Assembly (NCBI GenBank): GCA_964558415.1
Contig: CAZLDI010000016.1
Location: forward strand, 538 to 64,537
Length of the DNA stretch: 64,000 nucleotides
Source: an uncultured Dehalococcoidia bacterium
Lineage (GTDB): Bacteria; Chloroflexota; Dehalococcoidia; SM23-28-2; RBG-16-64-32
Reading direction: 5' to 3'
In this document: positions 9,739-27,234 of the stretch, piece by piece
Layout of the letters: each line of letters starts with the position of its first letter
Position numbering within the stretch: the first letter of the stretch is position 1
Made by a program: the position numbers and the translations under genes
The notes under the pieces: generated by a model
Databases searched by the model: none
The model's input: only the letters and a program-made list of their open reading frames with translations
What the model was told of the DNA's origin: nothing

Positions 9739-11304
9739 TTATTGACCCTCCGGCGGAGCCAGCGTGTCGGAGAACATCATTTGCGCCAGGGGCGGCACGC
9801 CCATCAGCAATAGTCCGCTCGTTATGAGCGTTAGCCCGCCGAACAGCGCTACCTTGTATGAGTGGCCACCTGATGCCGCCTTCGGTGCGAAGGCATTGAT
9901 CGCTGTAAGAGCAAGGATCACGCCGATTACCATCATCCTGATGAATCCCGTATCAAACGACTGGAACGAAAGCGCGCCCGGTATGCCGATGTCCTCCGGC
10001 CTGATCGTGGAAGCGTTCTCGGTGTTGGCGATCGCCTGCGCTTCCACAAGCTTCACATTGAACGCGCTGACGACTTCGCTCACGAAGACCATCGTGCCGA
10101 TCAGCGCCACGTGCATAGGAATGACCACATAGTTGAATGTCGATGCCACGAGCTTCCGCTTCGCCCTCAACAACCACACTCTCAATGCCATGTCTGAGGA
10201 GAATCGCCCAACCTTCTCAGGCTCGCCGCCCCAGTCGTTGCCATCCCAGAATGCGCGTACGGTCCTGTGCACCAGTTCACTACCCGTCTCCGCCATGAAC
10301 CGGCTCCAGCACAACCCCGTGTTAATACCGCAGGCCACCCGCTTCAGCAGGTTTATCAGCTCTGGCTCCAGGGAACCGATGGCGCGCGCGTCGATGTGAC
10401 CGAGGCTCTCTATCACCGTGCTGCCACGAGCGGCCGTAACACCGCCCAGCGCGCGCAGGAAGTCCGCGATATCGCGGTCCCGAGCGTCTATCTTCTGTTC
10501 GAGGAGGGTCGTGGTGACGCCCACGGGCAGTACGATGATGCCGGCGACGATAAGCGCAAGGCCCATGCTGCCCAGGACGCCAAAGGTGACAAGACCTACC
10601 AGCAGCGCCGTCGGAAGCAGAATCCTTGCCATCTTCGTCATGCGCTTCTGTTCCTCCGACCTGTGTTCCAGCTTGTGGACCACGGGGTCATAGGGAGCTA
10701 TCCGGTAGATCAGGTACGCCCCCATCGCTGCCGCTAAGATCGCCACCAGTTCCACCACAACCATGAACAGCAACCCCAGGTTGTAGATCATGTTGGAGAT
10801 CAGCGCCACGAGGACAATTAGGTTGCAGGACACCATCAACGCCACAAAGGCATCGGTCCATTTGCGTAGCGCCTCTATCGCCCGCTCGTACTCGTTCGTA
10901 TAGTCGTCCATCATTACCTGTGTCTCGCGCGCCAGGAAGACCGTCTCGGGCTCGCCGGAGGCCATTGAGTTACCGAAGCGCAGAAGGAACTGACGCATGA
11001 CCTCGTCCTTTGTCGTCTTTGAGACGACGTGGCACGCGTGAGAGTAGTCGTAGCCCAGGCTCTGGACCAGGTTCGCCACCCGCGCGAAGTACGGTGACGG
11101 CAGGTAACCCAGCTCCGAGGCGCTGTCGAAAATCTGCTCGCGGCTCAGGTTGGCCGTGGAAACGGACGAAAGATACGTCAGGACAGTGAGCAGGTCGAAC
11201 TGGCTCTGGTTCATGTCAAGAAGCATGGAGTTCTTGACGGCAGACAGAGCCGGGGACCGGCCGGAGCCGATGGGGGTACTAGAAGAGTCCTTGTTTCCTG
11301 GCAT
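9739..11304 (-). CDS. flaJ: archaellum membrane platform protein FlaJ-like (double T2SSF/TadC-like domains)
   Basis: 521 aa polytopic membrane protein with two repeated T2SSF-like halves. It sits immediately downstream of a FlaI-like ATPase. An alternative start at 11226 avoids the 26-nt overlap with flaI. Confidence 0.75.
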   Translation of the reverse strand: MPGNKDSSSTPIGSGRSPALSAVKNSMLLDMNQSQFDLLTVLTYLSSVSTANLSREQIFDSASELGYLPSPYFARVANLVQSLGYDYSHACHVVSKTTKDEVMRQFLLRFGNSMASGEPETVFLARETQVMMDDYTNEYERAIEALRKWTDAFVALMVSCNLIVLVALISNMIYNLGLLFMVVVELVAILAAAMGAYLIYRIAPYDPVVHKLEHRSEEQKRMTKMARILLPTALLVGLVTFGVLGSMGLALIVAGIIVLPVGVTTTLLEQKIDARDRDIADFLRALGGVTAARGSTVIESLGHIDARAIGSLEPELINLLKRVACGINTGLCWSRFMAETGSELVHRTVRAFWDGNDWGGEPEKVGRFSSDMALRVWLLRAKRKLVASTFNYVVIPMHVALIGTMVFVSEVVSAFNVKLVEAQAIANTENASTIRPEDIGIPGALSFQSFDTGFIRMMVIGVILALTAINAFAPKAASGGHSYKVALFGGLTLITSGLLLMGVPPLAQMMFSDTLAPPEGQ

Positions 11305-13000
11305 TTCCCAGTACCCTGTACAGTTCGTAGAAGTCAGAGATGTTGGACGATTTGTGTAGCTTCTCCAGCACCTTCGCCCGCCGGTCTATCTCCTGGTAGA
11401 TGCGGCGACGCTGGTTCGGTGGGATTCCGCGCGCCGGTGCCACCTTGTTCTCCAGCAAATAGCTGTTCATGTAACCCGTGAACTCGTGGACATCCGTGAT
11501 TGGGTCCCAGTGGAACGTCTCGGCATACGAGAACGAATCGGTTACGGAGTCGTAGCCGAACAGCTCGTTGATCGAAAGAATTCGCCGCCCCACCTTGCCG
11601 TTCGGCAGCTTGACGGCGCTGGCGATGACCACGAGGTTCAGGTTATCGATGTAGGACTTCGGGACGCTGATCGGTGCAGCCGTCACACGCTGTATCAGCT
11701 TCTCCACCGTAGCCGCGTGGAACGTCGCCATCACAGCATGGCCGGTCTGCATAGCCTGGAACGCGATATTCCCCTCTTCGCCGCGGATCTCACCAACGAT
11801 GATCTCGTTAGGCCGCTGCCGCAGCGCCGCTTTCAACAGGTCGAACATGGTCACGCTGGCCGCTTCGCCGGCCGCTCCACGTACCACTTCTCGTAGCCAG
11901 TTCGGATGCGGGACCTGCACCTCTGGCGTGTCCTCCACCGTCACAATTTTGGCGCCCGCATCAATGAACGTGGTCAGCGCATTGAGCAGCGTCGTCTTGC
12001 CTGATGCCGTCTCTCCGGAGACCCACATGTTCATGCCCTCTTCAATCATGATCGAGAGGTAGGCGATCATCTGGTACGTGCAGGCGCCGCCGGCAACAAC
12101 GTCCATCACGCTCAGGGGCGTCGCGGTGAACTTGCGGATCGTAAAGTTGCTGCCCCGCTTGGAGACCTCTTCGCCGTAGACTATGTTCACGCGCGAACCG
12201 TCCGGCAGGGTTGCGTCGACGATCGGTTTTCGGTAGGTGACCGGCTTGTTGATGCGCTCCGAGGTGCGCCGCAGGAACGCGTCAAGGTCGTCATGCTTGT
12301 CGAAGATGATCGCGGACTTGAGCGCCTTCAGCACCTTGTGCTCGATGAAGACCGGTCCCAGTCCCGCGCAGCTAATGTCCTCAATATTCGGGTCCAGGAT
12401 CAGCGGCTGCAGGATGCCCAGGCCAACCTTGTCTCGCAGCAGCAGATAGCGCACCGCGTCCAGGTCTACCTGCCCCAGCGTCATGCGGGAACCCCGTCGC
12501 GGCTTTTTCCAGCCGCTATCTGCGGGACGCAGGCTCCCATCGCTCCCTACCGTGACTACGCGGTCCAGGGCGTTCAAGAGGACCTCTCGCTGCTCTTCAT
12601 TGTTCTCCGGTTGGTGATACTTGTGCACGGCGTCCACCAACAGCTCTTCGACGATCTCCATGAGCGAGTCGTAGTCGCTGAGGATCGTCGGCTCAATCGG
12701 GATGTAGTAGTTGCGCGCGTCGTGCGCGTCCGCCAGGATGTGCGCAAAGGTAGCGTTGCCAACTGGATAGATGAGGTTCGGGGACTCGTTCGCCCCCGCC
12801 TTCCGGTCCAGCTTTGCGTGGTATTCCGGCGAACCCGTCTCGGCCACTGGAAGCGTGTGCAGGTAACGTCGCAGGTGCGCGTGCTCATCAACCAGTTCAC
12901 GCAGCTCAGCGGGAAGCGGCCCGCAGACGGCGCAGCTCGAGGAGACATGCGAGCCGTCCGACCAACCGATGTCCGGGAAGGGTAACGCAACGTACGGCAT
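11279..13000 (-). CDS. flaI: archaellum ATPase FlaI-like (type II/IV secretion ATPase superfamily)
   Basis: 573 aa with Walker A GETASGKTTLLNAL, Walker B/Asp box IIVGEIRGEE and His box TGHAVMATFHA. Length and N-terminal domain fit archaeal FlaI rather than the shorter bacterial CpaF/TadA. Confidence 0.85.
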   Translation of the reverse strand: MPYVALPFPDIGWSDGSHVSSSCAVCGPLPAELRELVDEHAHLRRYLHTLPVAETGSPEYHAKLDRKAGANESPNLIYPVGNATFAHILADAHDARNYYIPIEPTILSDYDSLMEIVEELLVDAVHKYHQPENNEEQREVLLNALDRVVTVGSDGSLRPADSGWKKPRRGSRMTLGQVDLDAVRYLLLRDKVGLGILQPLILDPNIEDISCAGLGPVFIEHKVLKALKSAIIFDKHDDLDAFLRRTSERINKPVTYRKPIVDATLPDGSRVNIVYGEEVSKRGSNFTIRKFTATPLSVMDVVAGGACTYQMIAYLSIMIEEGMNMWVSGETASGKTTLLNALTTFIDAGAKIVTVEDTPEVQVPHPNWLREVVRGAAGEAASVTMFDLLKAALRQRPNEIIVGEIRGEEGNIAFQAMQTGHAVMATFHAATVEKLIQRVTAAPISVPKSYIDNLNLVVIASAVKLPNGKVGRRILSINELFGYDSVTDSFSYAETFHWDPITDVHEFTGYMNSYLLENKVAPARGIPPNQRRRIYQEIDRRAKVLEKLHKSSNISDFYELYRVLGNARKQGLF

Positions 13001-13007
13001 CTCTGCA

Positions 13008-13922
13008 TCAAGCTTTTGTCTTGGATATCGGGATGCTCTTCAGCCCCAGCCCGGTGGCAACGCTGAAGCTAACGGAGTTGCCCACCGTCTTTGTAGCGCC
13101 GCGGATCTTGGACACCTCCAGCGTCCGCACCACCTGACCGCCCAGCTCCTCAATGCTCAACTTCAAGTGCGCGTCCACAATGGAGCCGGCGCGCAGGCGC
13201 AGGGATTCGTTAATCGCGTAGGAGTGCAGCGTCACGATGATCGTCCGTCCCAGCTCCGCCAGCTCCTTGCACGTCGCCAGAAATGACAGGACGAACCGAG
13301 CGTCGAACTGAAAGAGAAGCGGCGTGATGGAGTCCACAATCAGCAAGTCATACTTGTCGCCCTTCTCCACGAATTTGAGCAGATTCCGCGTCATCTGCTC
13401 CGCGCGTTCCTGGTCGACGCGCAAGTTTGATTGAAAGAGCGAGAGCCGGCCGACCAGATAGTAGTCCATTACGGGCATGCCCAGGGTCTCCATGGAATCC
13501 ATGAGCTCCCGCGCCGTGCATTCCGAAAGAAATACGCCCGCCCTCAAGCCCTCCTTTAGCGCCCCGTACATGAGCTGCTGCACAACAACGCTCTTACCGG
13601 CTTCTGGATCTCCCTCCACCAGGGTGACTGTGTTCAGCGAGAGGCCGCCCCCCAGCTTCTTGTCCATATCCATGACGCCCAGGGCTATGACCCGCGGTAT
13701 GGCCTCTTCGGGCTCTTCCTCCTCGGACATCTCATCGTCCGCCTCCGCGTGACTCTCAAGTCCCGCCATAGGGTCCGGCGCTGGGGCCACATCCCCCTCA
13801 GAAGCGACCGGAGGCTGAGTCAGCTCCGCCAGCGGGTCAGGAACGGGGGCCACCTCAGGCGCCGTATCAGCAACCGCAGTCGCGCCGGGCGTCAGGAGTT
13901 CGGTTGTGGCTTCAGCTTCCAT
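13008..13922 (-). CDS. flaH: FlaH-like RecA/KaiC-family ATPase with acidic N-terminal extension
   Basis: Walker A GDPEAGKS, Walker-B-like LLIVDSITPL, KaiC/RecA-like core of about 230 aa. It is preceded by about 75 aa of Pro/Ala/Glu/Asp low-complexity sequence. Its position directly upstream of flaI is as in archaella operons. Confidence 0.75.
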   Translation of the reverse strand: MEAEATTELLTPGATAVADTAPEVAPVPDPLAELTQPPVASEGDVAPAPDPMAGLESHAEADDEMSEEEEPEEAIPRVIALGVMDMDKKLGGGLSLNTVTLVEGDPEAGKSVVVQQLMYGALKEGLRAGVFLSECTARELMDSMETLGMPVMDYYLVGRLSLFQSNLRVDQERAEQMTRNLLKFVEKGDKYDLLIVDSITPLLFQFDARFVLSFLATCKELAELGRTIIVTLHSYAINESLRLRAGSIVDAHLKLSIEELGGQVVRTLEVSKIRGATKTVGNSVSFSVATGLGLKSIPISKTKA

Positions 13923-13940
13923 TCCTCAATCCGCTCCAGA

Positions 13941-14444
13941 TCAGAAGTAGACCGTGTATGAAACACCGGTATCGGATGTCAGCACGAACCAGCGGTCGGC
14001 GCTCGCCACCGTTGCCGGGCCAAGCTGTATGCGGATCGTCATCAATTCGCCGGTGTCCAGCTTGCCGGGGTTGCGGGCGTCCGGCGCGATCGCCGTGATC
14101 GTCCACGTGTTATCCGGCTGGATCGCGTCCTCCGTGTAGGGCAGCCACGTGCTGTGGCGCTGCAGGTCCGCACCGTTGTAACTGATTATCATGTCCATGT
14201 GGGCGAAGTCCTCCAGCACTGTCCTCCCGTCGTTCGCGACGACTGCGGTCACATCCACGCCGGTCGCGCCCACCACACTGGAGACGACCGACAGGTCTGT
14301 GCCGAGGCGCTCTTCAGAGATCGCCTCCATCTCGCGCCACGACTCGTTCACCGTGGTCAGCGAATTATGCGTTACATCCGCGATCAACACCCCTGCCAGG
14401 ACCATGATCGCTGCGATGAGAAGCGCGGGAATCGTGTGTTCCAC
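13941..14444 (-). CDS. flaG: FlaG-like archaellum accessory protein (N-terminal TM + beta-rich domain)
   Basis: 167 aa with N-terminal hydrophobic helix MEHTIPALLIAAIMVLAGVLIA. Size and position (between the flaF-like gene and flaH) match euryarchaeal flaF-flaG. Assignment is by synteny and architecture only. Confidence 0.5.
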   Translation of the reverse strand: MEHTIPALLIAAIMVLAGVLIADVTHNSLTTVNESWREMEAISEERLGTDLSVVSSVVGATGVDVTAVVANDGRTVLEDFAHMDMIISYNGADLQRHSTWLPYTEDAIQPDNTWTITAIAPDARNPGKLDTGELMTIRIQLGPATVASADRWFVLTSDTGVSYTVYF

Positions 14445-14453
14445 AACAGTAAC

Positions 14454-14957
14454 CTAAAGCGAAAACGTCCTACTGGCCGTGATACCGTTGGGCAGCACGA
14501 TGGTGCTGATGTAGTCGGTCCCGGCGGCCAGGTTGTAGTCCAGATAAACGGTGATTCGGAGCGTCGCGAAGGGCGTCCACTCCGTGTCGTTCTCAAGTTG
14601 GTATTGCCAGCAGGGTTCAGTCCGTGGCGGTGGCACCGGATTAGGGCACGTTGGCAAACTGTCATAGTCGATGCGTTCGAAGGCATCGACCTCTCCGAAG
14701 AAAACGTCGATCTTGTTCAGCGACGGTATGTTGATCGCGCCAACGTTCTTCGCCCAGATCTGGACACTGTCCTGTCCATCGATGCCGGCCGTCTCAATGA
14801 CCTTGACATCACTCCGCAGGCGCGTGCCCACAACGTCGCTCGCGGCCACGATGTCGCTGCTCGTCCGCTGGATAGCCGGCAAGACGGAGTTGATCACGAC
14901 CACCGTCGCTACGATCGCCGCGATCATTAGCAGCAGGGAGGTTATGACCTTGTCCAC
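14454..14957 (-). CDS. flaF: FlaF-like archaellum accessory protein (N-terminal TM + beta-rich domain)
   Basis: 167 aa with N-terminal helix MDKVITSLLLMIAAIVATVVVINSV. It is a paralog-like neighbour of the FlaG-like gene. Assignment is by synteny only. Confidence 0.5.
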   Translation of the reverse strand: MDKVITSLLLMIAAIVATVVVINSVLPAIQRTSSDIVAASDVVGTRLRSDVKVIETAGIDGQDSVQIWAKNVGAINIPSLNKIDVFFGEVDAFERIDYDSLPTCPNPVPPPRTEPCWQYQLENDTEWTPFATLRITVYLDYNLAAGTDYISTIVLPNGITASRTFSL

Positions 14958-14998
14958 GACTTACCTCCAGTTGTCCGGGCCGTGGGGGCATGATCGAT

Positions 14999-15736
14999 TC
15001 AGAGCGAGGCCAGCCTGTCGAGGTCCTGCATGACCTTGATCCAGGCAAGCCTTTCTTCGTCAGATGTCTTGAGCAGTTCCTGCAAGTGGGCGAGGGCGCG
15101 AATGATGTTGGGGGGAAGCGCGCCCCAGAGTCTGTGCATCGCGATCACATGCTCAAGATTCTCAGCGCCGATCGTCGCTAACGCCTCCGTCACCCAGGAC
15201 GACAGACTGGCGCCCGCGGTTATCGGCGGCAGGTTCGCCATGTACATCGTTGGTATCTCCGTATCTAGTGCAGGCCGATCGAACTCAGGCTCGGAGCGCC
15301 TCTTCCGGCGACCCGCAGCGGCTGCCGCCTCGCGGTCGGACTGCCTTGACCCGGCGGCGTCGCGAGGATCACCTGATTCGGGCGCGTCCTCAATCAGCGG
15401 CGCGTCCGCTCCCTCCGCCACCGCAACCGGATTCGCGTCCACCGTCGCAACGCCTGTCTCCGCCTCGTCAATTCCCAGCGCGGAAGCGGGTATCGTCTTG
15501 GTGTTTGCCGGCGCCGAATCGGCGGCAGTCGCCGCCTCGTGAGCAGCAACCTCGGAGGCCATGGCGCGCGCCGTCGTATTCAGGTCCATGCGGATGAACG
15601 CTGACTGGTTGTCTTCGCCCAGAGGGTTCACCTTCTCCAGGACGACCTCACGGATATCGAGGAGGACATTGCGTATCTCCGCCTTGAGGACCTTTAACTC
15701 GTCCTCCAGCTCTTTGATCTTCGCGTTGACTTCCAT
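14999..15736 (-). CDS. putative FlaC/D/E-like archaellum accessory protein (coiled-coil N-term, Ala-rich linker, conserved C-terminal domain)
   Basis: 245 aa with N-terminal coiled coil EVNAKIKELEDELKVLKAEIRNVL and a low-complexity linker. The C-terminal block (...MYMANLPPITAGASLSSWVTEALATIGAENLEHVIAMHRLWGALPPN) is reminiscent of the FlaD/E domain. Its position is between the archaellins and the flaF-like gene. Confidence 0.4.
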   Translation of the reverse strand: MEVNAKIKELEDELKVLKAEIRNVLLDIREVVLEKVNPLGEDNQSAFIRMDLNTTARAMASEVAAHEAATAADSAPANTKTIPASALGIDEAETGVATVDANPVAVAEGADAPLIEDAPESGDPRDAAGSRQSDREAAAAAGRRKRRSEPEFDRPALDTEIPTMYMANLPPITAGASLSSWVTEALATIGAENLEHVIAMHRLWGALPPNIIRALAHLQELLKTSDEERLAWIKVMQDLDRLASL

Positions 15737-15762
15737 GGCCTGAGCTGCTCCTGATTCAGGCC
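15737..15762 (-). promoter_or_regulatory. stem-loop (7 bp stem GGCCUGA/UCAGGCC) abutting the start codon of the FlaD/E-like gene, with the SD (AGGAG) in the loop
   Basis: Inverted repeat GGCCTGA(15737-15743)...TCAGGCC(15756-15762) lies between the archaellin array and the accessory genes. There is no U-tract. Confidence 0.4.
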
Positions 15763-15811
15763 CCGATTACGCCCCTACCATTTGGTGGCTCGTCGGGGGC
15801 GCCATCAAGGA

Positions 15812-16402
15812 CTAGTGAAGGTCCATTACCAGATCGATCGACGGAGGCATCGTGCGGTTGATAAGCAGCGTGCCGCCCTGCGGAGGAACGACTTCCAGAG
15901 TGAATATCTCGTTGGCGACGAGAGTGGAGGCTGCTGGAGGAGCAACGTTGATCTCGAATAGCTCCCCGTTCTCCAGCAGATCGTCGGCGTCGCCCTGGAT
16001 CTTGAGGACGGTGTACGTAGCGTCAGCCACGCGCGCCTGCGCATCGATGTAGTTGATGATGACCGAGTTCGTCGCGGCAGCCGGGTCGACCAGGACCGGG
16101 AAGCCGCCGGCGGCGTTCGCCAGATTGAACTCGATGTTGTCAAGAGTGGTGATCGTGCCACTGGCGTTAGTGTCCGTGACCGTGAGTGCACCGCGGACTT
16201 CGAGGTTGCCGCGGGCCTTCTCCAAACCGGCGAAGACGGTCTCCTTGCCGCGCTCAGCGCTGAACAGACCGGTGCTGAGGACCACGAAGGCGAACACCGA
16301 GGCCACGATGACGAACGCGATCAGGATGATCGCCGTCTCCAGACCGGTGATGCCCTCTTCTTTCTTGTGCAGGCTGCCAAACAGCCGCGTAAGCCTCGAC
16401 AT
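15812..16402 (-). CDS. flaB: archaellin (archaeal-type flagellin), paralog 4
   Basis: 196 aa. Class-III signal peptide (MSRLTRLFGSLHKKEEG|ITGLE) followed by a hydrophobic N-domain (TAIILIAFVIVASVFAFVVLSTGLFSAERGKETVFAGLEKARGN). Compare Methanococcus FlaB [36 protein letters not shown]. Confidence 0.85.
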   Translation of the reverse strand: MSRLTRLFGSLHKKEEGITGLETAIILIAFVIVASVFAFVVLSTGLFSAERGKETVFAGLEKARGNLEVRGALTVTDTNASGTITTLDNIEFNLANAAGGFPVLVDPAAATNSVIINYIDAQARVADATYTVLKIQGDADDLLENGELFEINVAPPAASTLVANEIFTLEVVPPQGGTLLINRTMPPSIDLVMDLH

Positions 16403-16435
16403 TCTGTTACCCCTTCCTGCCTGTGGGCCCGTGAC

Positions 16436-17026
16436 CTAGTGGAGGTCCATGACGAGGTCGATCGACGGCGGTACTGTGCGGTTGATCAGCAGCGTGCCAC
16501 CCTGCGGAGGAACGACTTCCAGAGTGAATATCTCGTTCGCGACGAGAGTGGAGGTGCCTGGAGGCGAGACGCTAATCTCGAAAAGCTCCCCGTTCTCGAG
16601 CAGGTTGTCGCCATCGCCTTGGATCTCGGTAACGGTGTACGTAGCGTCAGCCACGCGCGCCTGGGCATCGATATAGTTGATGATGACCGAGTGCGTGGTG
16701 GCGGCCGGGTCGACCAGGACCGGGAAGCCGCCGGCGGCGTTCGCCAGGTTGAACTGGATGTTGTCAGCGGCGGTGATAGTGCCGCTGGCATCGGTGTCGG
16801 TGATGGTGAGGGCCCCGCGGACCTCCATGTTGCCCCGCGCCTTCTCCAAACCGGCGAAGACGGTCTCCTTGCCGCGCTCAGCGCTGAAGAGACCAGTGCT
16901 CAGAACCACGAAGGCGAACACCGAAGCCACGATGACGAACGCGATCAGGATGATCGCCGTCTCCAGACCGGTGATGCCCTCTTCTCTCTTGTGCAGGCTG
17001 CCGAGCAGCCGTGTAAGCGTATTCAT
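16436..17026 (-). CDS. flaB: archaellin, paralog 3
   Basis: 196 aa, about 90% identical to the neighbouring copies, with the same class-III signal peptide and hydrophobic N-terminal domain. Confidence 0.85.
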   Translation of the reverse strand: MNTLTRLLGSLHKREEGITGLETAIILIAFVIVASVFAFVVLSTGLFSAERGKETVFAGLEKARGNMEVRGALTITDTDASGTITAADNIQFNLANAAGGFPVLVDPAATTHSVIINYIDAQARVADATYTVTEIQGDGDNLLENGELFEISVSPPGTSTLVANEIFTLEVVPPQGGTLLINRTVPPSIDLVMDLH

Positions 17027-17063
17027 TTGTTACCCCTTCCTGTGTTCCGTGAGCGTGTGTGAC

Positions 17064-17654
17064 CTAGTGGAGGTCCATGATGACGTCGATCTCCGGCGGC
17101 ATCGTGCGGTTGATCAGCAGCGTGCCGCCCTGCGGAGGAACGACTTCCAGGGTGAATATCTCGTTGGCGGCGAGAGTGGAGGTGCCGGGGGGCGAGACAT
17201 TGATCTCGAACAGCTCCCCGTTTTCCAACAGATCGTCGGCGTCGCCCTGGATCTTGAGCACGGTGAACGTGGCGTCAGCCACGCGCGCCTGGGCATCGAT
17301 GTAGTTGATGATGATCGAGTTCGTCGTGGCAGCCGGGTCAATAAGGACCGGGAAGCCGCCGGCGGCGTTCGCCAGATTGAACTCGATGTTGTCGGCGCTG
17401 TCAACGGTTCCGAGCGGCGCGACGTCGGTAATGGTGAGGGCACCACGGACCTCAAGGTTGCCCCGTGCCTTCTCCAGTCCGGCGAAGACGGTCTCCTTGC
17501 CGCGCTCAGCGCTGAACAGACCGGTGCTGAGGACCACGAAGGCGAACACCGAGGCCACGATGACGAACGCGATCAAGATGATCGCCGTCTCCAGACCGGT
17601 GATGCCCTCTTCCCTCTTGTGCAGGCTGCCAAGCAGCCGGAAAAGCTTAGACAT
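17064..17654 (-). CDS. flaB: archaellin, paralog 2
   Basis: 196 aa with the same N-terminal domain. It has a divergent patch at residues 78-90 (VAPLGTVDSADN). Confidence 0.85.
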   Translation of the reverse strand: MSKLFRLLGSLHKREEGITGLETAIILIAFVIVASVFAFVVLSTGLFSAERGKETVFAGLEKARGNLEVRGALTITDVAPLGTVDSADNIEFNLANAAGGFPVLIDPAATTNSIIINYIDAQARVADATFTVLKIQGDADDLLENGELFEINVSPPGTSTLAANEIFTLEVVPPQGGTLLINRTMPPEIDVIMDLH

Positions 17655-17686
17655 GTATTACCCCCTCTCGCCTGTGAGCGAGTGAA

Positions 17687-18277
17687 CTAATGCAGATCCA
17701 TTACTGTGTCGATCTCCGGCGGCAGCGTGCGCATGATCAGCAGCGTGCCACCCTGCGGAGGAACGACTTCCAGTGTGAAGATCTCGTTGGGTGCCAGGGT
17801 GGACGTACCCGGCGGGGAAACGTTGACCTCGAAGAGTTCGCCGTTCTCCAACAGGTTGTCGCCATCGCCCTGGATCTCCGTGACGGTGTACGTGGCATCA
17901 GCCACGCGCGCCTGTGCGTCGATGTAGTTCATGACCACCGAGTTCGTGGTGGCAGCCGGGTCCACTAAGACCGGGAAACCGCCGGCGGCGTTGGCCAGGT
18001 TAAACTCGATGTTGTCCGCGGCCGTGATCGTGCCACTCGCGTCCGTGTCTGTGATCGTCAGCGCGCCTCGGACCTCCAGGTTGCCCCGCGCCTTCTCCAG
18101 ACCGGCGAAGACAGTCTCCTTGCCTCGCTCGGCGCTGAACAGACCGGTGCTGAGCACCACGAAGGCGAACACCGAAGCGACAATCACGAAAGCAATGAGG
18201 ATGATCGCGGTCTCCAGACCGGTGATACCCTCTTCTCTCTTGTGCAGGCTGCCAAGCAGCCGCGTGATCTTGCGCAT
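17687..18277 (-). CDS. flaB: archaellin, paralog 1 (first gene of operon)
   Basis: 196 aa. A strong SD (AAGGAGG) precedes the ATG, and a 660 bp AT-richer leader/promoter region lies upstream. Confidence 0.85.
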   Translation of the reverse strand: MRKITRLLGSLHKREEGITGLETAIILIAFVIVASVFAFVVLSTGLFSAERGKETVFAGLEKARGNLEVRGALTITDTDASGTITAADNIEFNLANAAGGFPVLVDPAATTNSVVMNYIDAQARVADATYTVTEIQGDGDNLLENGELFEVNVSPPGTSTLAPNEIFTLEVVPPQGGTLLIMRTLPPEIDTVMDLH

Positions 18278-21190: not shown

Positions 21191-21400
21191 CCTCACCCCC
21201 GGCCCTCACCCCCGGCCCCGTAATCTCGCCAATCTGTATTCCCCGAGTCGCTCACCAACGGGGGTCAGGCTCGCAGCCTGACGCGCCGGCCGGGTCGGCA
21301 ACAGCACTGCCAGTACGCAGCCACTGCGCGCACAGGGACGGGGCGAGTCACGCAGGCGTGTGCCGCCAGGACCTTGTAACTCTCGCCGAAAGGTGCAATC

Positions 21401-21631
21401 GTGAACACGGAACCAAGCAGGATATGGAGAGCTGAGACGATGAACGTATCGGAGCTGAAGGCGGGAGACAGGGTACAGACTATTGACGGGACGCTCGCAG
21501 AGGTACTCAAGGAAAGCGAAGATGGGCGCTGGATCCTCGTTCGATACGTGGCCCATGCCAGCGATCCGAAGCTGATCGGAACCGAGGATCTCTGCTCTGA
21601 GGACGAAATCGAAGTCCGAATGACTTCGTAG
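21401..21631 (+). CDS. small hypothetical protein at start of lower-GC island
   Basis: 76 aa ORF. Local GC is visibly lower than the flanks. No homology recognised. Confidence 0.3.
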   Translation: MNTEPSRIWRAETMNVSELKAGDRVQTIDGTLAEVLKESEDGRWILVRYVAHASDPKLIGTEDLCSEDEIEVRMTS

Positions 21632-21779
21632 CTGCTTACCGTGCTCCGCCATGTCGGACGCAAGCGCCGCCCTGATGCTAGACCAGTTGTCAACAATTGG
21701 GTGTCATTTCCAGGTTGACTCACCGCGCTGTACGGCCCGAACATCTTTACAAGTAGGTCACTTGGCTAGGCGCTAAGAA

Positions 21780-22979
21780 ATGTTCACGAGTGTTTCTCTG
21801 TTCTCAGGGGCCGGTGGCCTCGACCTAGGCCTTGAGTCGCATGGTTTCGCGACCCGGGTATTCGTTGAGATAAACAAGGATGCTCAGGCCACGCTCAAGT
21901 TGAATCGCGCGGCGTGGCTCGTCCCTGATGCGGTGGTGCTGGGCGACATCACCCGGGTCTCAGCCTCAGAGGTTCTGGCGGCCGCCGATCTGCAGCCGGG
22001 GGAGAGTGGCCTGCTTGCCGGGGGCGCGCCCTGCCAATCCTTCAGCACCGCTGGCAGGCGGGCATCCATCGCAGATCCAAGAGGGAGTTTGTTCGCCCAT
22101 TTCGCCCGAATCGTTGACGGCCTCCAGCCTCGATTCTTTGTTTTCGAGAACGTACGGGGGATTCTCTCCGCCGCAATAAGACATCGGCCGCTCCACCTAC
22201 GTGGTCCCGAAGCTGAACCGCTCACTGAAGATGAGGAGCTAGGGAGCGCCGTGAAGAGAGTTATATTGCCCACCCTCCGCGATGACCTCGGCTATGAGGT
22301 CGTCTATGGGCTCGTCAACGCCGCGGATTATGGCGTCCCCCAGAAGCGCGATCGTGTCCTCTTCCTTGGGAGCCGCGACAGGGAGTTCGGGAGCGATCGC
22401 TGGCCATTCTTCGAGAACGCCATCGATCGGCTCATGCCTCCTACCCACTCGCGCTCCGGCGCTTACCCACTCGGTGGGTGGTGCACATTGGGAGACGCAA
22501 TCCGCGCACTCAGGGAGGAGGATCCTGAATTCGTGCCATACTCTGCCTCGAGGAAGGCTGTCCTCGATCTGGTACCGCCTGGAAAGAACTGGCGGTACCT
22601 GCGGGACAGCCTCGGTGACGAGTATCTCAGGAGCATCATGGGCGGAGCTTACGCGGCGGACGGCGGGAAAGTCGGCTTTTGGCGGCGCCTGGACTTCGAC
22701 AGGCCATGCCCGACCGTGCCAGCGAGTCCTATACAAAAGGGGACGTCGTTATGCCATCCCAAAGAGACTCGGCCCCTGTCGGTGCGCGAATACGCACGCG
22801 TTCAACAGTTCCCGGATTCGTATCAATTCGCTGGTTCAACTGCCTCCAAGTACCGACAGATTGGGAACGCAGTGCCCATCGGACTGGGTGAAGCCGTGGG
22901 GCGCGCGCTGATCGCAGTCACGCAAGGTCAAGTCCAGGTCGCCGAAGAACGTGCCACTTACGCCACAACAGCGCGCTGA
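21780..22979 (+). CDS. DNA (cytosine-5)-methyltransferase
   Basis: Motif I FSGAGG, motif IV GGAPCQSFSTAG, motif VI ENVRG and motif X RQIGNAVP are present, so the enzyme looks complete. Confidence 0.9.
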   Translation: MFTSVSLFSGAGGLDLGLESHGFATRVFVEINKDAQATLKLNRAAWLVPDAVVLGDITRVSASEVLAAADLQPGESGLLAGGAPCQSFSTAGRRASIADPRGSLFAHFARIVDGLQPRFFVFENVRGILSAAIRHRPLHLRGPEAEPLTEDEELGSAVKRVILPTLRDDLGYEVVYGLVNAADYGVPQKRDRVLFLGSRDREFGSDRWPFFENAIDRLMPPTHSRSGAYPLGGWCTLGDAIRALREEDPEFVPYSASRKAVLDLVPPGKNWRYLRDSLGDEYLRSIMGGAYAADGGKVGFWRRLDFDRPCPTVPASPIQKGTSLCHPKETRPLSVREYARVQQFPDSYQFAGSTASKYRQIGNAVPIGLGEAVGRALIAVTQGQVQVAEERATYATTAR

Positions 22980-23700
22980 CATCCAGGCGATTTTCACCAA
23001 GACGGTCGCCAATGCGTTCGATCGTTTGGGAAATTTGACTCTCCAAGCTCAGGCAATCAACCCCTTTCTGGCAGTTCTCGTTGCCAGAAGGCCACGGGAT
23101 CTGGCAGAGTTCATCGTTCACCAGAGGGTAGAGCGCGGCCTAGTGACATCGTTTGGCATGCAAATCCAGAGGATCGTGCTGCTTGTGGGGGACAACCTCC
23201 ACACCAGTGGGATCGAAGGCGCTGACCTCGAACGAATTGACGATGCGGTGCACCGCCACATCCTGGCGCAGTTGAAAAGCGGTCCCGAAACCGTCAACAG
23301 CGACATCGCAGGCCAGATCCGGAGGAATTTGAATTCAGCCGAGCATCGAATTAAGATGGGGGGCCTACCCCAGGGATGGGCTACAACCAAGATGCTGGGG
23401 ATGATCTACGGAACCCCGCGGCACCGCAATAGTTGGGTGATGAAGCTGGACGCCGAAGGTTTCGATGTAGACAAGATAGGAAGTGCATTTTGGCAATTCG
23501 CATCCGGGGCGTCTGACACTCACATAGAGGTCTTCCAAATAGCGTTTGAGGTTGCTCACTCTTACCGCCACGAGACCGGGCGCACACTCCCAGAGGCAAT
23601 TCAAGAGGCAATCGGATCCCTCACCAACGAGCTGCGCACTCACTACAGTGATTCGAAGGGTGACATAGATTGGACAAGGCTTCTCCAAGAGAACATGTAG
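22951..23700 (+). CDS. hypothetical protein, candidate type II restriction endonuclease partner of the C5-MTase
   Basis: 249 aa ORF overlapping the MTase 3' end by 29 nt, with no recognisable family. It is assigned by position only. Confidence 0.35.
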   Translation: MPLTPQQRADIQAIFTKTVANAFDRLGNLTLQAQAINPFLAVLVARRPRDLAEFIVHQRVERGLVTSFGMQIQRIVLLVGDNLHTSGIEGADLERIDDAVHRHILAQLKSGPETVNSDIAGQIRRNLNSAEHRIKMGGLPQGWATTKMLGMIYGTPRHRNSWVMKLDAEGFDVDKIGSAFWQFASGASDTHIEVFQIAFEVAHSYRHETGRTLPEAIQEAIGSLTNELRTHYSDSKGDIDWTRLLQENM

Positions 23701-24380
23701 GCGACAGGAGACAAGGGGATCGCCTTCTTGGTGAGGTGCAAGACAGGAAGGCGCGGTTTGTTCGTCGGCTCCTCAAATGGGGCAGAGCCAACCCAAGGAG
23801 CTTCCCATGGCGCGACCCGGGCCGAACGCCGTACGAGGTGCTGGTAGCCGAGTTGCTGCTTAAGCGAACCACATCTAAAGCCGCGGCGCGGGCGTATCCA
23901 ATCTTCCTGAACCGATTTCCGTCCTTCTCAGCGATCGCTGAGGCCAGAGAGCCTTACCTGGCTTCAGTTCTCCAACCCGTGGGCCTCTCCAAGCAGCGCG
24001 CGAAAGGGTTCCGTGAAATGGCCAAACACGTCGAAAAGGTCCATCACGGGACATTGCCAAGCAGGATTGCAGCGTTGGAGCAGCTACCACACACAGGGCC
24101 ATACAGCGCCCGGGCCGTGGCATCTTTCGCTTACAACCAAAGGGCCGCTATCGTCGATTCAAACGTCATCAGAGTTCTCAGTCGAGTCTTTGCCAAGTCG
24201 GTTCCGGAACGGCAAAGCCTTAAGGCCTGGCAGGCTCTGGCGGACTGCCTTGTCCCCAATCGTGAGCACCGGCTCTACAACTACGCCTTACTGGATCTCG
24301 GGGCTACGGTTTGCCGGTACGACCGGCCTCATTGTTCAGAATGTCCCCTAGCCGTGATCTGCGACTCGGCTAAACCCTAA
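23670..24380 (+). CDS. HhH-GPD family DNA glycosylase with [4Fe-4S] loop (EndoIII/MutY/Mig-like)
   Basis: HhH-GPD core and a terminal Cys-X6-Cys-X2-Cys-X5-Cys cluster (CRYDRPHCSECPLAVIC). It lies directly downstream of a C5-MTase, like Mig.MthI next to M.MthTI. Confidence 0.75.
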   Translation: MDKASPREHVGDRRQGDRLLGEVQDRKARFVRRLLKWGRANPRSFPWRDPGRTPYEVLVAELLLKRTTSKAAARAYPIFLNRFPSFSAIAEAREPYLASVLQPVGLSKQRAKGFREMAKHVEKVHHGTLPSRIAALEQLPHTGPYSARAVASFAYNQRAAIVDSNVIRVLSRVFAKSVPERQSLKAWQALADCLVPNREHRLYNYALLDLGATVCRYDRPHCSECPLAVICDSAKP

Positions 24381-24454
24381 CTACTGCTCCGCCACTGCCA
24401 CTTCCCCCTTAGACCTCCGCCCCAAACCCGATACTCTGAAACCGGAGGTGTCCC

Positions 24455-24994
24455 ATGCCCTGCAGCGAACATCACTTCATACCCATCCTCGACGAACTCC
24501 GCCAAACGCCGGACCCTGAGTTGCCGCCCGGCACGCAGCCGGAGACTCCTGAGCCGCCGTCCATTGCGAAGATCGCCGGCCGCACGTGGGGTGGCCACCG
24601 CCCCGGCGCGGGCGCGCCCAAAGGCAACCTCAACGCCCTCAAAGACGGCCGCCACTCTGCCCGCTACCGCCGCCTCGTCCAGTCGCTCGCCCTCCTCCCT
24701 GAGGTCCGCGACACCCTGATCGGCCTCGGCGAGCACCGCCGTCACCGTCAGCGCCTCGCGGAAGCCGGCGCCTCAGAGCTGCTCGCGGGGCTCCTCCAGC
24801 GCGCCGGCGAGATCGTCCTCCACCCCGAAAGCAATCATGTCGAGAACAATCAAGCTCTCCTCGACTTCCTCCGCAGCGCCGAGCTCAAACTTCGCGCGCT
24901 TTCGAAAATGCAATCAAGAGAAGCTCGCCAAATCGACCGGTCAATCAAGCAGCAGGCCCGCAGACGGCCTCCGCCTCACTCCTCCGCGAAGTAG
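24455..24994 (+). CDS. hypothetical protein (basic; GGHRPGAGAPKGNLNALKDG motif, possibly phage/mobile-element DNA-binding)
   Basis: 179 aa. The last codons run into the duplicated malic-enzyme 3' fragment. Confidence 0.35.
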   Translation: MPCSEHHFIPILDELRQTPDPELPPGTQPETPEPPSIAKIAGRTWGGHRPGAGAPKGNLNALKDGRHSARYRRLVQSLALLPEVRDTLIGLGEHRRHRQRLAEAGASELLAGLLQRAGEIVLHPESNHVENNQALLDFLRSAELKLRALSKMQSREARQIDRSIKQQARRRPPPHSSAK

Positions 24995-25062
24995 TCCGGG
25001 TCGAGGTCGCGGGTGGCGAGGGCGCGGTCGACGCAGGCGCGGGCGACGGCGCGGTGGAGCGT
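24975..25062. repeat. direct repeat copy A: pseudo 3' end of malic enzyme gene (encodes ...DRALATRDLDPDYFAEE* on minus strand)
   Basis: About 69 bp identical to 25873..25941, continuing with a 12-bp indel and 2 mismatches for about 15 more bp. Confidence 0.85.
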
Positions 25063-25073
25063 ATAATTCCTGT

Positions 25074-25403
25074 ATGACCACCAGCACGCGGTTCGACCTG
25101 CCTCATGCCGCCGTCGCGGCCCTGTGCCAGCGACGTCACATCCGAAAGCTATCGCTTTTCGGATCGGTACTGCGGGATGACTTCGGCCCGGACAGTGATA
25201 TCGACGTGCTGGTTGAGTTCGAGGAGGGTCACGTCCCCGGCTTCGGCTTCGTGGCCGTTCAGCAGGAGCTGTCAGAGCTGGTCGGGCGCCCCGTGGACCT
25301 TGTGACGCCGAAGGGGCTCAACCGGCGCATACGCGAGAAGGTGCTCGCGCAAGCAAAGGTGGAGTATGCCGGCGGCGGCGTCGGTCAGCGGGCAGACTGG
25401 TAG
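25074..25403 (+). CDS. nucleotidyltransferase (MNT-type minimal NTase of HEPN/MNT toxin-antitoxin class)
   Basis: GS...D.D motif LSLFGSVLRDDFGPDSDIDVLVEF. Start at ATG 25074, with TATAAT at 25062-25067 only 6 nt upstream (possible leaderless transcript). The 188 aa track ORF is an over-extension. Confidence 0.75.
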   Translation: MTTSTRFDLPHAAVAALCQRRHIRKLSLFGSVLRDDFGPDSDIDVLVEFEEGHVPGFGFVAVQQELSELVGRPVDLVTPKGLNRRIREKVLAQAKVEYAGGGVGQRADW

Positions 25404-25606
25404 ATGGCTGGGCGGTAGCGCGGCCGCGGGATGGGCTTGCCGGCGGTACGGGCCGCATCGAGCCAGGCGGCCTTCGCCTGCTCTACTTCCGCCAGCGCTT
25501 GTTCAGGCGTGTCGCCGAAGGCTGAGCAGGAGTCGAGATCGGGGATGTCGGCGATGTAGCCGCCGTCGTCCTGGCTGTAGAAGATGTTTATGTGGTAGTC
25601 CTTCAT
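25385..25606 (-). CDS. hicB: HicB-family antitoxin
   Basis: 73 aa with an UPF0150/HicB-like N-terminal fold (MKDYHINIFYSQDDGGYIADIPDLDSCSAFGDTPEQALAEVEQA). Confidence 0.65.
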   Translation of the reverse strand: MKDYHINIFYSQDDGGYIADIPDLDSCSAFGDTPEQALAEVEQAKAAWLDAARTAGKPIPRPRYRPAIYQSAR

Positions 25607-25860
25607 GGCGCGTCTTCCATTGTTAGATTATACCGCTCGACTAGCCGCAGAAACTGGCGAATCTGGTACGGCTTAGCCTGTCCGCCTGTGTCCTGAAGGT
25701 TGATGAGCTCCGGAATGGCGGGATGGGCGAAGATGTGATGGCTTCCACTGGTCCTTATCAGGGTGAAGCCGAACGCCTCCACAAGATCGGTGAAGTCGCC
25801 GAAGCGGACGTTGCTTAGGGCGCCGCCGGTGAGTCGGCGCAGGAGCCGTCTGCGCCGCAA
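25603..25860 (-). CDS. hicA: HicA-family toxin (mRNA interferase)-like
   Basis: 85 aa with a GFTLIRTSGSHHIFAHP HicA-like motif. It overlaps hicB by 4 nt. Confidence 0.55.
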   Translation of the reverse strand: MRRRRLLRRLTGGALSNVRFGDFTDLVEAFGFTLIRTSGSHHIFAHPAIPELINLQDTGGQAKPYQIRQFLRLVERYNLTMEDAP

Positions 25861-25867
25861 GTCTTAG

Positions 25868-25967
25868 CCCTACTCCTCCGCGAAGTAGTCCGGGTCGAGG
25901 TCGCGGGTGGCGAGGGCGCGGTCGACGCAGGCGCGGGCGACCGCCCGGGCGACGGTGCGGTGGACCG
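25868..25967. repeat. direct repeat copy B: authentic 3' end of malic enzyme gene
   Basis: Same sequence as copy A. The two copies bracket an 824 bp MNT + HicAB cassette. Confidence 0.85.
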
Positions 25968-27234
25968 AGCGGTCCAGCGGGCTGGGCAGGAGCTGGCCAG
26001 CGGGGGTGACGGCGACGATCGCCTCGCTGGCGGACTGGAAGACCGCGGTCTCGGCGCGGCGCGCGCCGGCGTCGAGCAGGCCGCGGCAGGCTCCGGGGTA
26101 GCAGAGGAGGTTGTTGATGTTCGCGCCGCCCTCGGCGATGCGCGCGCCGGCGTCCATCGCTTCGCGGGCGTCGATCTCCGGCCTCGGGTTGGAGAGGGCG
26201 AAGATGATCTGACCGGCGCGCACCATCTCCGGCTTGATCAGGCCGGCCTGCCCCGTCGTCGCGATCACGATGTCGCACTTGCCGCAGATCTCCTCCAGGT
26301 CGGAGCCCGTGCCGCCGCCGGCCTCCAGGCGCTGGACGGCGTCGGGCTGCTTGTCGGCGCCGAGGACGGCGTGCCCGGTGTAGTGCATCACCGCGCGGGC
26401 GATGGCGAAACCGGCGGCGCCGAGGCCGACCTGGCCGATGCGCAGGCGGTTGGCGGGCGTCTCGACGAGCCGGCAGGCGTTGATCAGGGCGGCGAGGACG
26501 ACGGCGGCGGTGCCGTGCTGGTCGTCGTGGAAGACGGCCATGTCGACGGCGTCCTGAACGCGCGGCTCGATGTCGAAGCAGCGCGGCGAGGCGATGTCCT
26601 CGAGCTGGATCACGCCGAACGAGGGGGAGATAGCGGTGACCGCGGCGACGATCTCGTCCGAGTCCTGGCTGCGGAGGGCGATCGGAACCGCGTTCACGCC
26701 GACGAGGTGCGCGAGGAGCGCGGCCTTGCCCTCGAGCACGGGCATCGCCGCAAGGGGGCCGAGGTTGCCGAGGCCCAGCACCGCCGAGCCGTCGCTGACG
26801 ATAGCGACGGTGTTCGGGATGATCGTGTAGTGGTTGGCCAGCTCCGGGTCCTCGTGGATGCGGCGGCAGACCTCGCCGACGCCGGGGGTGTAGACGCGCC
26901 CGAGGTCGGCGAACGTCTCGATGGGGAGCTGCGAGACGATGCGGATCTTGCCGCCGACGTGCGCCGAGAGCACTTCGTCGCGCAGCTCAACGATCGTCGT
27001 CTCGTCCGACGCTTCCAGTTCAGCGACGAGCGCGTCGAGCTCGTCGAGCGACTCCACGAGGAGGTCGATGTCGCGCACCATGGACGTGCGGCTCTGGTGG
27101 ACCGTGCGGATGTCGCCGACGTTACCGCCGTGGCGGGCGATGACGCTGAGGACGGAGGCGAGGACGCCGATGCGGTTGACGTTCTTGACGCGCAGCGTGC
27201 GGGAGAACTGGGGCTTCTGGGGAGCGCGCGCCAT
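25870..27234 (-). CDS. NAD(P)-dependent malic enzyme with N-terminal ACT domain
   Basis: 454 aa with an N-terminal ACT domain, a malic enzyme core (VYTPGVG...) and a Rossmann fold. Confidence 0.9.
   Translation of the reverse strand: MARAPQKPQFSRTLRVKNVNRIGVLASVLSVIARHGGNVGDIRTVHQSRTSMVRDIDLLVESLDELDALVAELEASDETTIVELRDEVLSAHVGGKIRIVSQLPIETFADLGRVYTPGVGEVCRRIHEDPELANHYTIIPNTVAIVSDGSAVLGLGNLGPLAAMPVLEGKAALLAHLVGVNAVPIALRSQDSDEIVAAVTAISPSFGVIQLEDIASPRCFDIEPRVQDAVDMAVFHDDQHGTAAVVLAALINACRLVETPANRLRIGQVGLGAAGFAIARAVMHYTGHAVLGADKQPDAVQRLEAGGGTGSDLEEICGKCDIVIATTGQAGLIKPEMVRAGQIIFALSNPRPEIDAREAMDAGARIAEGGANINNLLCYPGACRGLLDAGARRAETAVFQSASEAIVAVTPAGQLLPSPLDRSVHRTVARAVARACVDRALATRDLDPDYFAEE

Follow-up and report, generated by a model that had tools for sequence, protein, structure and literature searches.

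A predicted type II restriction-modification cassette with a Mig-type DNA glycosylase in a 64-kb window of an apparently Chloroflexota-like genome

A 64-kb stretch of DNA (the window, meaning the whole stretch that was analysed) contained three overlapping open reading frames (ORFs) that ran in the same direction on the + strand at 21780-24380. In order, the three ORFs encode a predicted C5-cytosine DNA methyltransferase (MTase; M), a predicted restriction endonuclease (REase; R) and a predicted Mig-type DNA glycosylase. With a probability of roughly 0.78, this M-R-glycosylase cassette would be a mobile type II restriction-modification (R-M) operon with a repair arm for T/G mismatches. The ORF of 249 amino acids (aa) in the middle of the cassette and the 3' end of the MTase gene shared 29 nucleotides (nt), and the glycosylase ORF and the 249-aa ORF shared 31 nt. 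The three genes were as follows.

21780..22979, + strand: predicted C5-cytosine DNA methyltransferase (M), 399 aa; assigned by Pfam PF00145, TIGR00675 and motifs
22951..23700, + strand: predicted EcoO109I-family type II restriction endonuclease (R), 249 aa, GTG start; assigned by Pfam, profile and AlphaFold2 (AF2) fold
23670..24380, + strand: predicted Mig-type HhH-GPD/[4Fe-4S] DNA glycosylase, 236 aa, TTG start; assigned by the 1KEA match, residues and model cut-offs

Products of the three overlapping genes

The product of 21780-22979 is a predicted complete C5-MTase. It matched Pfam PF00145 with E=6e-61 and 207 bits (cut-off 22), TIGR00675 with 180 bits (cut-off 100.65) and PADLOC MTase_II with E=4e-84. 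Motifs I, IV, VI, VIII, IX and X were all present in canonical order, with FSGAGG at residue 8, PCQ at 84, ENV at 123, QKRDR at 188, motif IX at 336 and GNAVP at 362.

The 249-aa ORF is a predicted EcoO109I-family restriction endonuclease of the PD-(D/E)XK type. Its product matched Pfam RE_EcoO109I (PF14511) at 44.2 bits (gathering score 22.5; E=2.4e-11), and this domain was present in 24 of 24 homologs. Direct sequence search of the 249-aa protein against the Protein Data Bank (PDB) returned no match; a profile of 25 homologs recovered EcoO109I (PDB 1WTD) with E=8e-9 over nearly the whole length. Identity of the window protein to EcoO109I was about 20%. The AF2 model had a mean predicted local distance difference test (pLDDT) score of 91.6, and the sole PDB matches found for it by Foldseek at E<=0.001 were the EcoO109I structures 1WTE and 1WTD (template-modelling (TM) score 0.70/0.65).

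In the profile alignment, D92 and K109 of the REase aligned with D110 and K126 of EcoO109I. Altogether, four residues (D92, E94, Q107 and K109) were invariant in 22 REase homologs that were 28%-72% identical to the window protein (alignment A3). Gln73 occupied the position of the EcoO109I helix acid D77, a position that was not conserved, and Gln107 occupied the acidic position of the (D/E)XK motif, where EcoO109I itself has Ser. The 22 homologs were nearly all 249 aa long and began with MPLTP; this common N-terminus supports the GTG start.

The comparisons support the third product as a putative Mig-type glycosylase, neither MutY nor Nth. Its best PDB match was Mig.MthI (1KEA; E=3.6e-35, 34% identity), with MutY at 1.7e-27 and Nth at 7e-15. 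Equivalents of Mig.MthI F27, E42, R47, Y126, D144, N146, N186 and D191 and the four Cys were retained, and residues E61, Y145, D163, N165 and D209 of the window glycosylase were invariant in 120 homologs. The iron-sulfur loop CRYDRPHCSECPLAVIC followed the pattern C-X6-C-X2-C-X5-C at residues 215-231 (Cys215, 222, 225 and 231). The protein ended five residues past the last cluster Cys and is therefore without the MutY C-terminal domain. Tyr145 replaced the catalytic Lys of Nth (K120), and a monofunctional glycosylase is therefore predicted.

The best-scoring NCBIfam model was mutY TIGR01084, at 162.6 bits and thus below its cut-off of 286.5; the Nth model TIGR01083 scored 69.9 bits, below its cut-off of 211.7. 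PADLOC PDLC03398 (“Type II nicking endonuclease”, 221 positions) matched with E=5e-36 over the same coordinates as the Mig.MthI match, so that catalogues of R-M components already include enzymes of this type. No ORF of the low-GC patch that holds the cassette (described below) matched a Vsr family in Pfam or NCBIfam. One gene caller chose an alternative start for the glycosylase (GTG at 23736, 214 aa); several homologs aligned along the entire 236 aa. The best match in the GTDB representative set was 54% identical.

These assignments agree with an earlier sequence-only reading of the window, which had proposed a complete C5-MTase with FSGAGG, PCQ, ENV and GNAVP motifs, a candidate REase in the overlapping 249-aa ORF, and an EndoIII/MutY-family glycosylase with the iron-sulfur loop given above. 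The motifs were found in place beside the strong PF00145 match, the candidate REase received a nuclease annotation (RE_EcoO109I) rather than a non-nuclease one and was matched to EcoO109I by profile and by model, and the loop was located at the C-terminus of the glycosylase. The reading had further likened the locus to the Mig pairing of MTase and glycosylase, a comparison that was borne out by 1KEA as best match and by MTase linkage at 29 of 35 loci (see below). Its view that the logic of Vsr is followed here by a non-Vsr enzyme gains support from the Mig family assignment together with the MTase linkage, the T/G activity being predicted from the family.

Linkage of the glycosylase to C5-methyltransferases

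When one genome per GTDB species was scanned with a glycosylase profile, 35 loci were obtained. These were mostly from Chloroflexota (Dehalococcoidia, Caldilineaceae, Phototrophicaceae and Thermoflexus), and the loci from outside Chloroflexota included Bathyarchaeota, ANME-2, Desulfurococcales, Methanoregula and Pyrobaculum oguniense. A C5-MTase lay within 6 kb of the glycosylase in 29 of the 35 loci, mostly abutting it, and an EcoO109I-like gene was also present at 10 of the 29 MTase-linked loci. As a control, loci fetched with an unrelated query contained a C5-MTase in 0 of 31 cases (249 kb). The six loci without an MTase comprised three full-length MutY genes (330-354 aa), a partial match (L040), a 4-kb contig (L023) and L004-type cases. 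Locus L004 was considered as an exception and set aside: it held an EcoO109I-like gene and a glycosylase fused to a helix-turn-helix (HTH) domain, and its MTase lay on that contig too, about 9 kb off and beyond transposases.

The M-R-glycosylase order and its overlaps were repeated in GCA_041643075.1 (L001) and in a Logan contig (L002). The trio of L001 and L002 was 72%, 58% and 60% identical to the window M, R and glycosylase, respectively, and was flanked by acyl-CoA dehydrogenase genes, unlike the trio in the window. The same gene order was also found in L022 and L027. The P. oguniense ortholog (L034; 35% identity to the window glycosylase) lay directly downstream of a C5-MTase. Among the glycosylase relatives the nuclease partner differed, namely Eco29kI-type (L038), BpuSI-like (L026) or PLD-type (pCALKR01), and the C5-MTase was constant, as would be expected of a glycosylase that serves the methylase. 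Pairwise identities of the glycosylases and of the MTases were correlated (r=0.73), and 0 of 2000 Mantel permutations reached this value.

The PLD-type locus provided a cultured bacterial example. Plasmid pCALKR01 of Caldicellulosiruptor acetigenus (L041; NC_014719.1, 4313-7232) carried a PLD-domain REase, a DNA cytosine methyltransferase and a Mig-like protein; the last of these, a “base excision DNA repair protein”, was 40% identical to the window glycosylase.

A C-terminal domain of the XRE/HTH_3 type, 70-80 aa long, was present in about 45 of the top 120 homologs of the glycosylase (P0020-P0115; loci L007-L014, L016, L019-L021 and L025). This domain occupied the position of the 8-oxoguanine (8-oxoG)-recognition domain of MutY. 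A reading of the fused HTH as a C-protein was rejected: the PDB matches were to a generic XRE fold (HigA, DdrO), and the match to C.AhdI reached just E=0.027. A review from 2022 on the non-catalytic domains of DNA glycosylases makes no mention of HTH domains.

Some of the fused forms had other partners. In L009 (4764-5888; also in L003, L011, L014 and L025) a C5-MTase was found with a DndB/DpdB-like protein (DpdB E=4e-20, DndB E=6e-13) and an HTH-fused glycosylase. In L010, L013, L016, L019, L020 and L021 a divergent SNF2/ResIII helicase (570 aa) and a 394-aa protein of unknown function stood beside the MTase and the HTH-fused glycosylase. Both kinds of neighbourhood may be undescribed defence systems based on 5-methylcytosine (5mC).

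Base composition, insertion slot and neighbouring genes

The guanine-plus-cytosine (GC) content of 21200-24400 was 0.591, which made it the lowest-GC 3.2-kb stretch within the window; the other 3.2-kb windows had a mean of 0.646 (standard deviation 0.021, minimum 0.597). GC content at third codon positions (GC3) was 0.64-0.67 for the MTase, the REase, the glycosylase and a 76-aa ORF upstream of them, 0.79-0.96 for most flanking genes and 0.71 for the nearby HicA gene.

The window was 99.95% identical to JGI metagenome contig Ga0136847_11750904. The slot that holds the cassette is bounded by the genes for an MMPL transporter and a malic enzyme. Five syntenic contigs from relatives (orthologs about 77% identical) kept the order luciferase-like gene, malic enzyme, MMPL, and no MTase, REase, glycosylase or toxin-antitoxin genes were present on these five contigs. 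The cassette is thus supported as a putative horizontally acquired R-M island, with the absence from syntenic contigs, the contrast in composition and the different flanks in L001 together supporting horizontal acquisition.

In the relatives the slot contained a single 643-aa secreted or surface protein (L048 9434-11365, - strand; equivalents in L045, L050, L051 and L053) that had a long repeat rich in Thr and Pro and a membrane anchor at its C-terminus. Since this protein stands in place of the R-M island, the slot between the malic-enzyme and MMPL genes is a variable locus.

The sequence-only reading had seen here a patch of lower GC and of horizontal origin with an archaeal flavour. The windowed GC and GC3 values and the five contigs without the cassette confirmed the lower GC and are in line with the horizontal origin; the syntenic relatives were without the glycosylase gene altogether, rather than keeping a generic Nth/MutY gene at this position without an MTase. 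The archaeal flavour held for the distribution of the family, which includes archaea: the closest relatives are bacterial (Chloroflexota), so that “archaeal” describes the family distribution and is not evidence of an archaeal donor.

Other features next to the cassette were as follows.

21401..21631, + strand: 76-aa ORF without a functional assignment, at the left margin of the low-GC patch; GC3 0.66, as in the three enzymes
21683..21700, no strand: 18-nt palindrome CCAGTTGTCAACAATTGG, lying about 80 nt 5' of the MTase start; read in the sequence and in a terminator-like scan
24455..24994, + strand: 179-aa ORF with the GAGAPKGNLNALKDG motif (GAGAPxGNxNALKxG); GC3 0.79, host-like
25074-25403: MNT-type nucleotidyltransferase, between the 82-nt repeats
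25385-25606, - strand: HicB, between the 82-nt repeats
25603-25860, - strand: HicA, between the 82-nt repeats
25870-27234, - strand: malic-enzyme gene

The 76-aa ORF had no match in Pfam, NCBIfam, PADLOC or PHROG. One weak relative was found upstream of the MTase-glycosylase pair of L036 (42% identity over 52 aa, E=1e-7), and membership of this ORF in the R-M system is uncertain. The palindrome CCAGTTGTCAACAATTGG is possibly an operator or a terminator-like element, and is offered as a lead only; the terminator-like scan gave a site count no higher than in shuffles. The PHROGs search gave 0 matches and thus no mark of a phage-borne cassette.

On the other side, the 179-aa ORF had a weak match to a TerS-like protein (terminase small subunit; E=0.006). 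A homolog lay directly 3' of the trio in L001 (37% identity over 111 aa, E=3e-10) and in no other locus. This ORF is possibly travelling with the cassette, although its membership is doubtful. Its 3' end extended into the left copy of an 82-nt direct repeat, the two copies of which (24973-25054 and 25867-25948) were 95% identical; the malic-enzyme gene has the right copy as its 3' end. The repeat-bracketed genes look like a small toxin-antitoxin cassette that entered the 3' end of the malic-enzyme gene by site-specific recombination.

Elsewhere in the window, a complete archaellum-like gene cluster was found on the - strand at 9739-18277. It is presumably the other “archaeal” element to which the sequence-only reading referred, and it fits a Chloroflexota-like host. 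It comprised the following genes.

9739-11304, - strand: ArlJ-like T2SSF
11279-13000, - strand: ArlI-like T2SSE ATPase
13008-13922, - strand: KaiC/ArlH-like ATPase
14454-14957, - strand: archaellin-like 167-aa protein
15812-18277, - strand: four tandem 196-aa archaeal-type flagellins

Proposed function and comparison with known systems

In the proposed mechanism the methylase would place 5mC at a specific site, as its family suggests, and the EcoO109I-fold nuclease, judged by the activity of its family, would cut incoming DNA wherever that site is unmethylated. Deamination of 5mC yields thymine, which escapes uracil glycosylases. By analogy with the biochemistry of Mig.MthI and Pa-MIG, the monofunctional glycosylase would then remove the T (and U) that deamination of 5mC (or C) leaves opposite G, and host apurinic/apyrimidinic (AP) endonuclease, polymerase and ligase would put C back. 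The glycosylase would be the base-excision counterpart of Vsr beside dcm and would reduce the mutational cost of the C5 methylase. Mig enzymes have been described as evolved against 5mC deamination (PMC1636421).

The target site of the R-M system is probably related to GGNCC, a guess by analogy with EcoO109I, whose site is RG^GNCCY, and with its relative AvaII, G^GWCC (PMC7337904). Several observations weigh against the proposed mechanism. GGNCC was not clearly avoided in the 64-kb window (word frequency ratio 0.93, z=-1.5), where RGGNCCY had a ratio of 0.83 (z=-1.5) and the low words GGCC (0.84) and CTAG (0.45) are generic signals. The MTase target-recognition region alone, searched against solved MTase structures, had no match, and the full-length MTase homolog search yielded generic names only, with no clue to specificity. 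The guess at the target site was therefore not sharpened by word frequencies, target-recognition region or homolog names. The promoter scan gave no promoter-like site, and shared host phylogeny could be partly behind the correlation of glycosylase and MTase identities.

The substrate pocket of the glycosylase belongs with these points. A50 and L187 in Mig, against V45 and Q182 in MutY, are the positions that switch the preference of Mig.MthI between T/G and A/G (PMC2714593). The window glycosylase has S69 for A50 and Y205 for L187, and its substrate preference could differ. Among the 120 homologs the A50 site was A or S and the L187 site was W, F, Y or L; the Val and Gln of MutY did not occur at these sites. 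The pocket of the window protein is thus unlike that of MutY but also differs from that of Mig.MthI.

Three other explanations of the cassette were considered. It is unlikely that the cassette is in decay or survives as a solitary remnant, with a methylase that may work, an inactive 249-aa nuclease and a glycosylase that limits the mutational cost of an orphan methylase. Such a remnant would fit the many glycosylase relatives that stand beside a C5-MTase without a recognisable REase, and also Gln73 and Gln107 of the REase at the D77 and (D/E)XK acidic positions; set against it are three cassette ORFs that are all intact and full length, a nuclease whose D92, E94, Q107 and K109 are invariant in 22 homologs (with Ser at the Q107 position in EcoO109I itself), and a gene order with frame overlaps that is kept in L001. 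The glycosylase might instead be a defence arm, either as a restriction glycosylase of the R.PabI/Brig1 type that removes modified or unusual bases from the DNA of invaders or as a sensor of damage or modification, in the manner of the EndoIII-derived domain in END nucleases, and this is judged quite improbable. Relatives do lie among genes of a defence type, with DndB/DpdB-like proteins, SNF2 helicases and a BpuSI-like enzyme as neighbours; the extra C-terminal HTH domain occurs in about 45 of 120; and END nucleases use EndoIII-like domains as sensors (PMC12191111). The END domains are inactivated (PMC12191111), however, and the catalytic Asp, Glu and Tyr of the window glycosylase are invariant; it keeps these residues in a single stand-alone domain, unlike END nucleases, in which the sensor is fused to a nuclease domain. 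Moreover, its closest characterised enzymes are T/G repair glycosylases, and a constant C5-MTase with a varying nuclease fits repair of 5mC deamination and not a particular restriction mechanism.

There is very little chance that the glycosylase is an ordinary MutY/Nth housekeeping gene that came to lie beside an R-M system by accident. This would account for mutY as its best NCBIfam model and for the public annotation of its relatives as “A/G-specific adenine glycosylase”, but the protein scored far below both the MutY and the Nth cut-offs, has no MutY C-terminal domain and lacks the MutY specificity residues Val and Gln. The gene was also absent from the same slot in relatives, and MTase linkage held for 29 of the 35 loci and for none of the 31 controls, with the full-length MutY genes among the unlinked ones.

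Carriage of a C5 methylase creates mutational hot spots, and how bacteria other than enterobacteria meet this cost is poorly documented. The locus and its relatives tie a putative Mig-type glycosylase to the methylase gene in bacteria (mainly Chloroflexota) and in archaea, whatever the nuclease, and thus extend the arrangement beyond a few thermophilic archaea. They also correct the generic database label “A/G-specific adenine glycosylase” for this family and supply candidates for biochemistry, HTH-fused forms among them. For the window itself, the practical gain is that a small mobile R-M island is now cleanly annotated.

Three features exceed what the textbook case shows and did not turn up in the literature searched: the near-obligate MTase linkage, the concentration in Chloroflexota and the frequent C-terminal XRE-HTH fusion. 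A tentative extension is that Mig-type glycosylases might be a standard co-inherited third component of many C5-methylase systems in Chloroflexota and several archaeal phyla, where they would fill the role of Vsr. On the same speculative footing, the HTH-fused third might join repair with sequence targeting or with control over transcription of the methylase/nuclease operon, as a “controller-repair” protein, and the DndB/DpdB-like or SNF2-helicase partners would imply 5mC-based defence systems that include a glycosylase.

The closest known system is that of Mig.MthI, whose gene reportedly adjoins that of M.MthTI on the Methanothermobacter plasmid pFV1. Both this enzyme and the window protein are short (about 220 aa) HhH-GPD/[4Fe-4S] glycosylases beside a C5-MTase R-M system, without a MutY C-terminal domain, and at 34% identity they share E42, R47, Y126, D144 and the Cys ligands. 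The window system differs from Mig.MthI, M.MthTI and R.MthTI in that its host is apparently bacterial and Chloroflexota-like and its genes form a chromosomal M-R-glycosylase operon. The nuclease also differs from R.MthTI, having a predicted EcoO109I fold and a likely GGNCC-type site in place of GGCC, and in the pocket of the glycosylase S and Y take the places of A50 and L187. Pa-MIG, a U/G and T/G glycosylase of Pyrobaculum aerophilum, belongs to the same family as the window glycosylase; its host is a hyperthermophilic archaeon, and an EcoO109I-like nuclease was not detected at the P. oguniense locus (L034).

As in Dcm-Vsr of E. coli, a repair gene overlaps or abuts the C5-MTase gene and would be aimed at T/G mismatches that arise by 5mC deamination. 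Vsr, an unrelated endonuclease, makes its nick on the 5' side of the T, whereas here an N-glycosylase would initiate base excision repair. The REase resembles EcoO109I, of which AvaII is a structural relative, in its predicted fold, in the positions of the catalytic D and K and in its pairing with a C5-MTase, and differs from it in an identity of just about 20%; we know of no glycosylase gene with the EcoO109I system. MutY and endonuclease III share with the window glycosylase the HhH-GPD/[4Fe-4S] superfamily and the catalytic Asp. The window protein departs from them in falling below both cut-offs, in having neither the NUDIX-like C-terminal domain nor the Val and Gln of MutY, and in carrying Tyr for the catalytic Lys of Nth. 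Overall, the cassette stands as a well-supported further instance of an arrangement that archaea are already known to have, as Mig.MthI with M.MthTI, and that the PADLOC model reflects, and not as a new kind of system.

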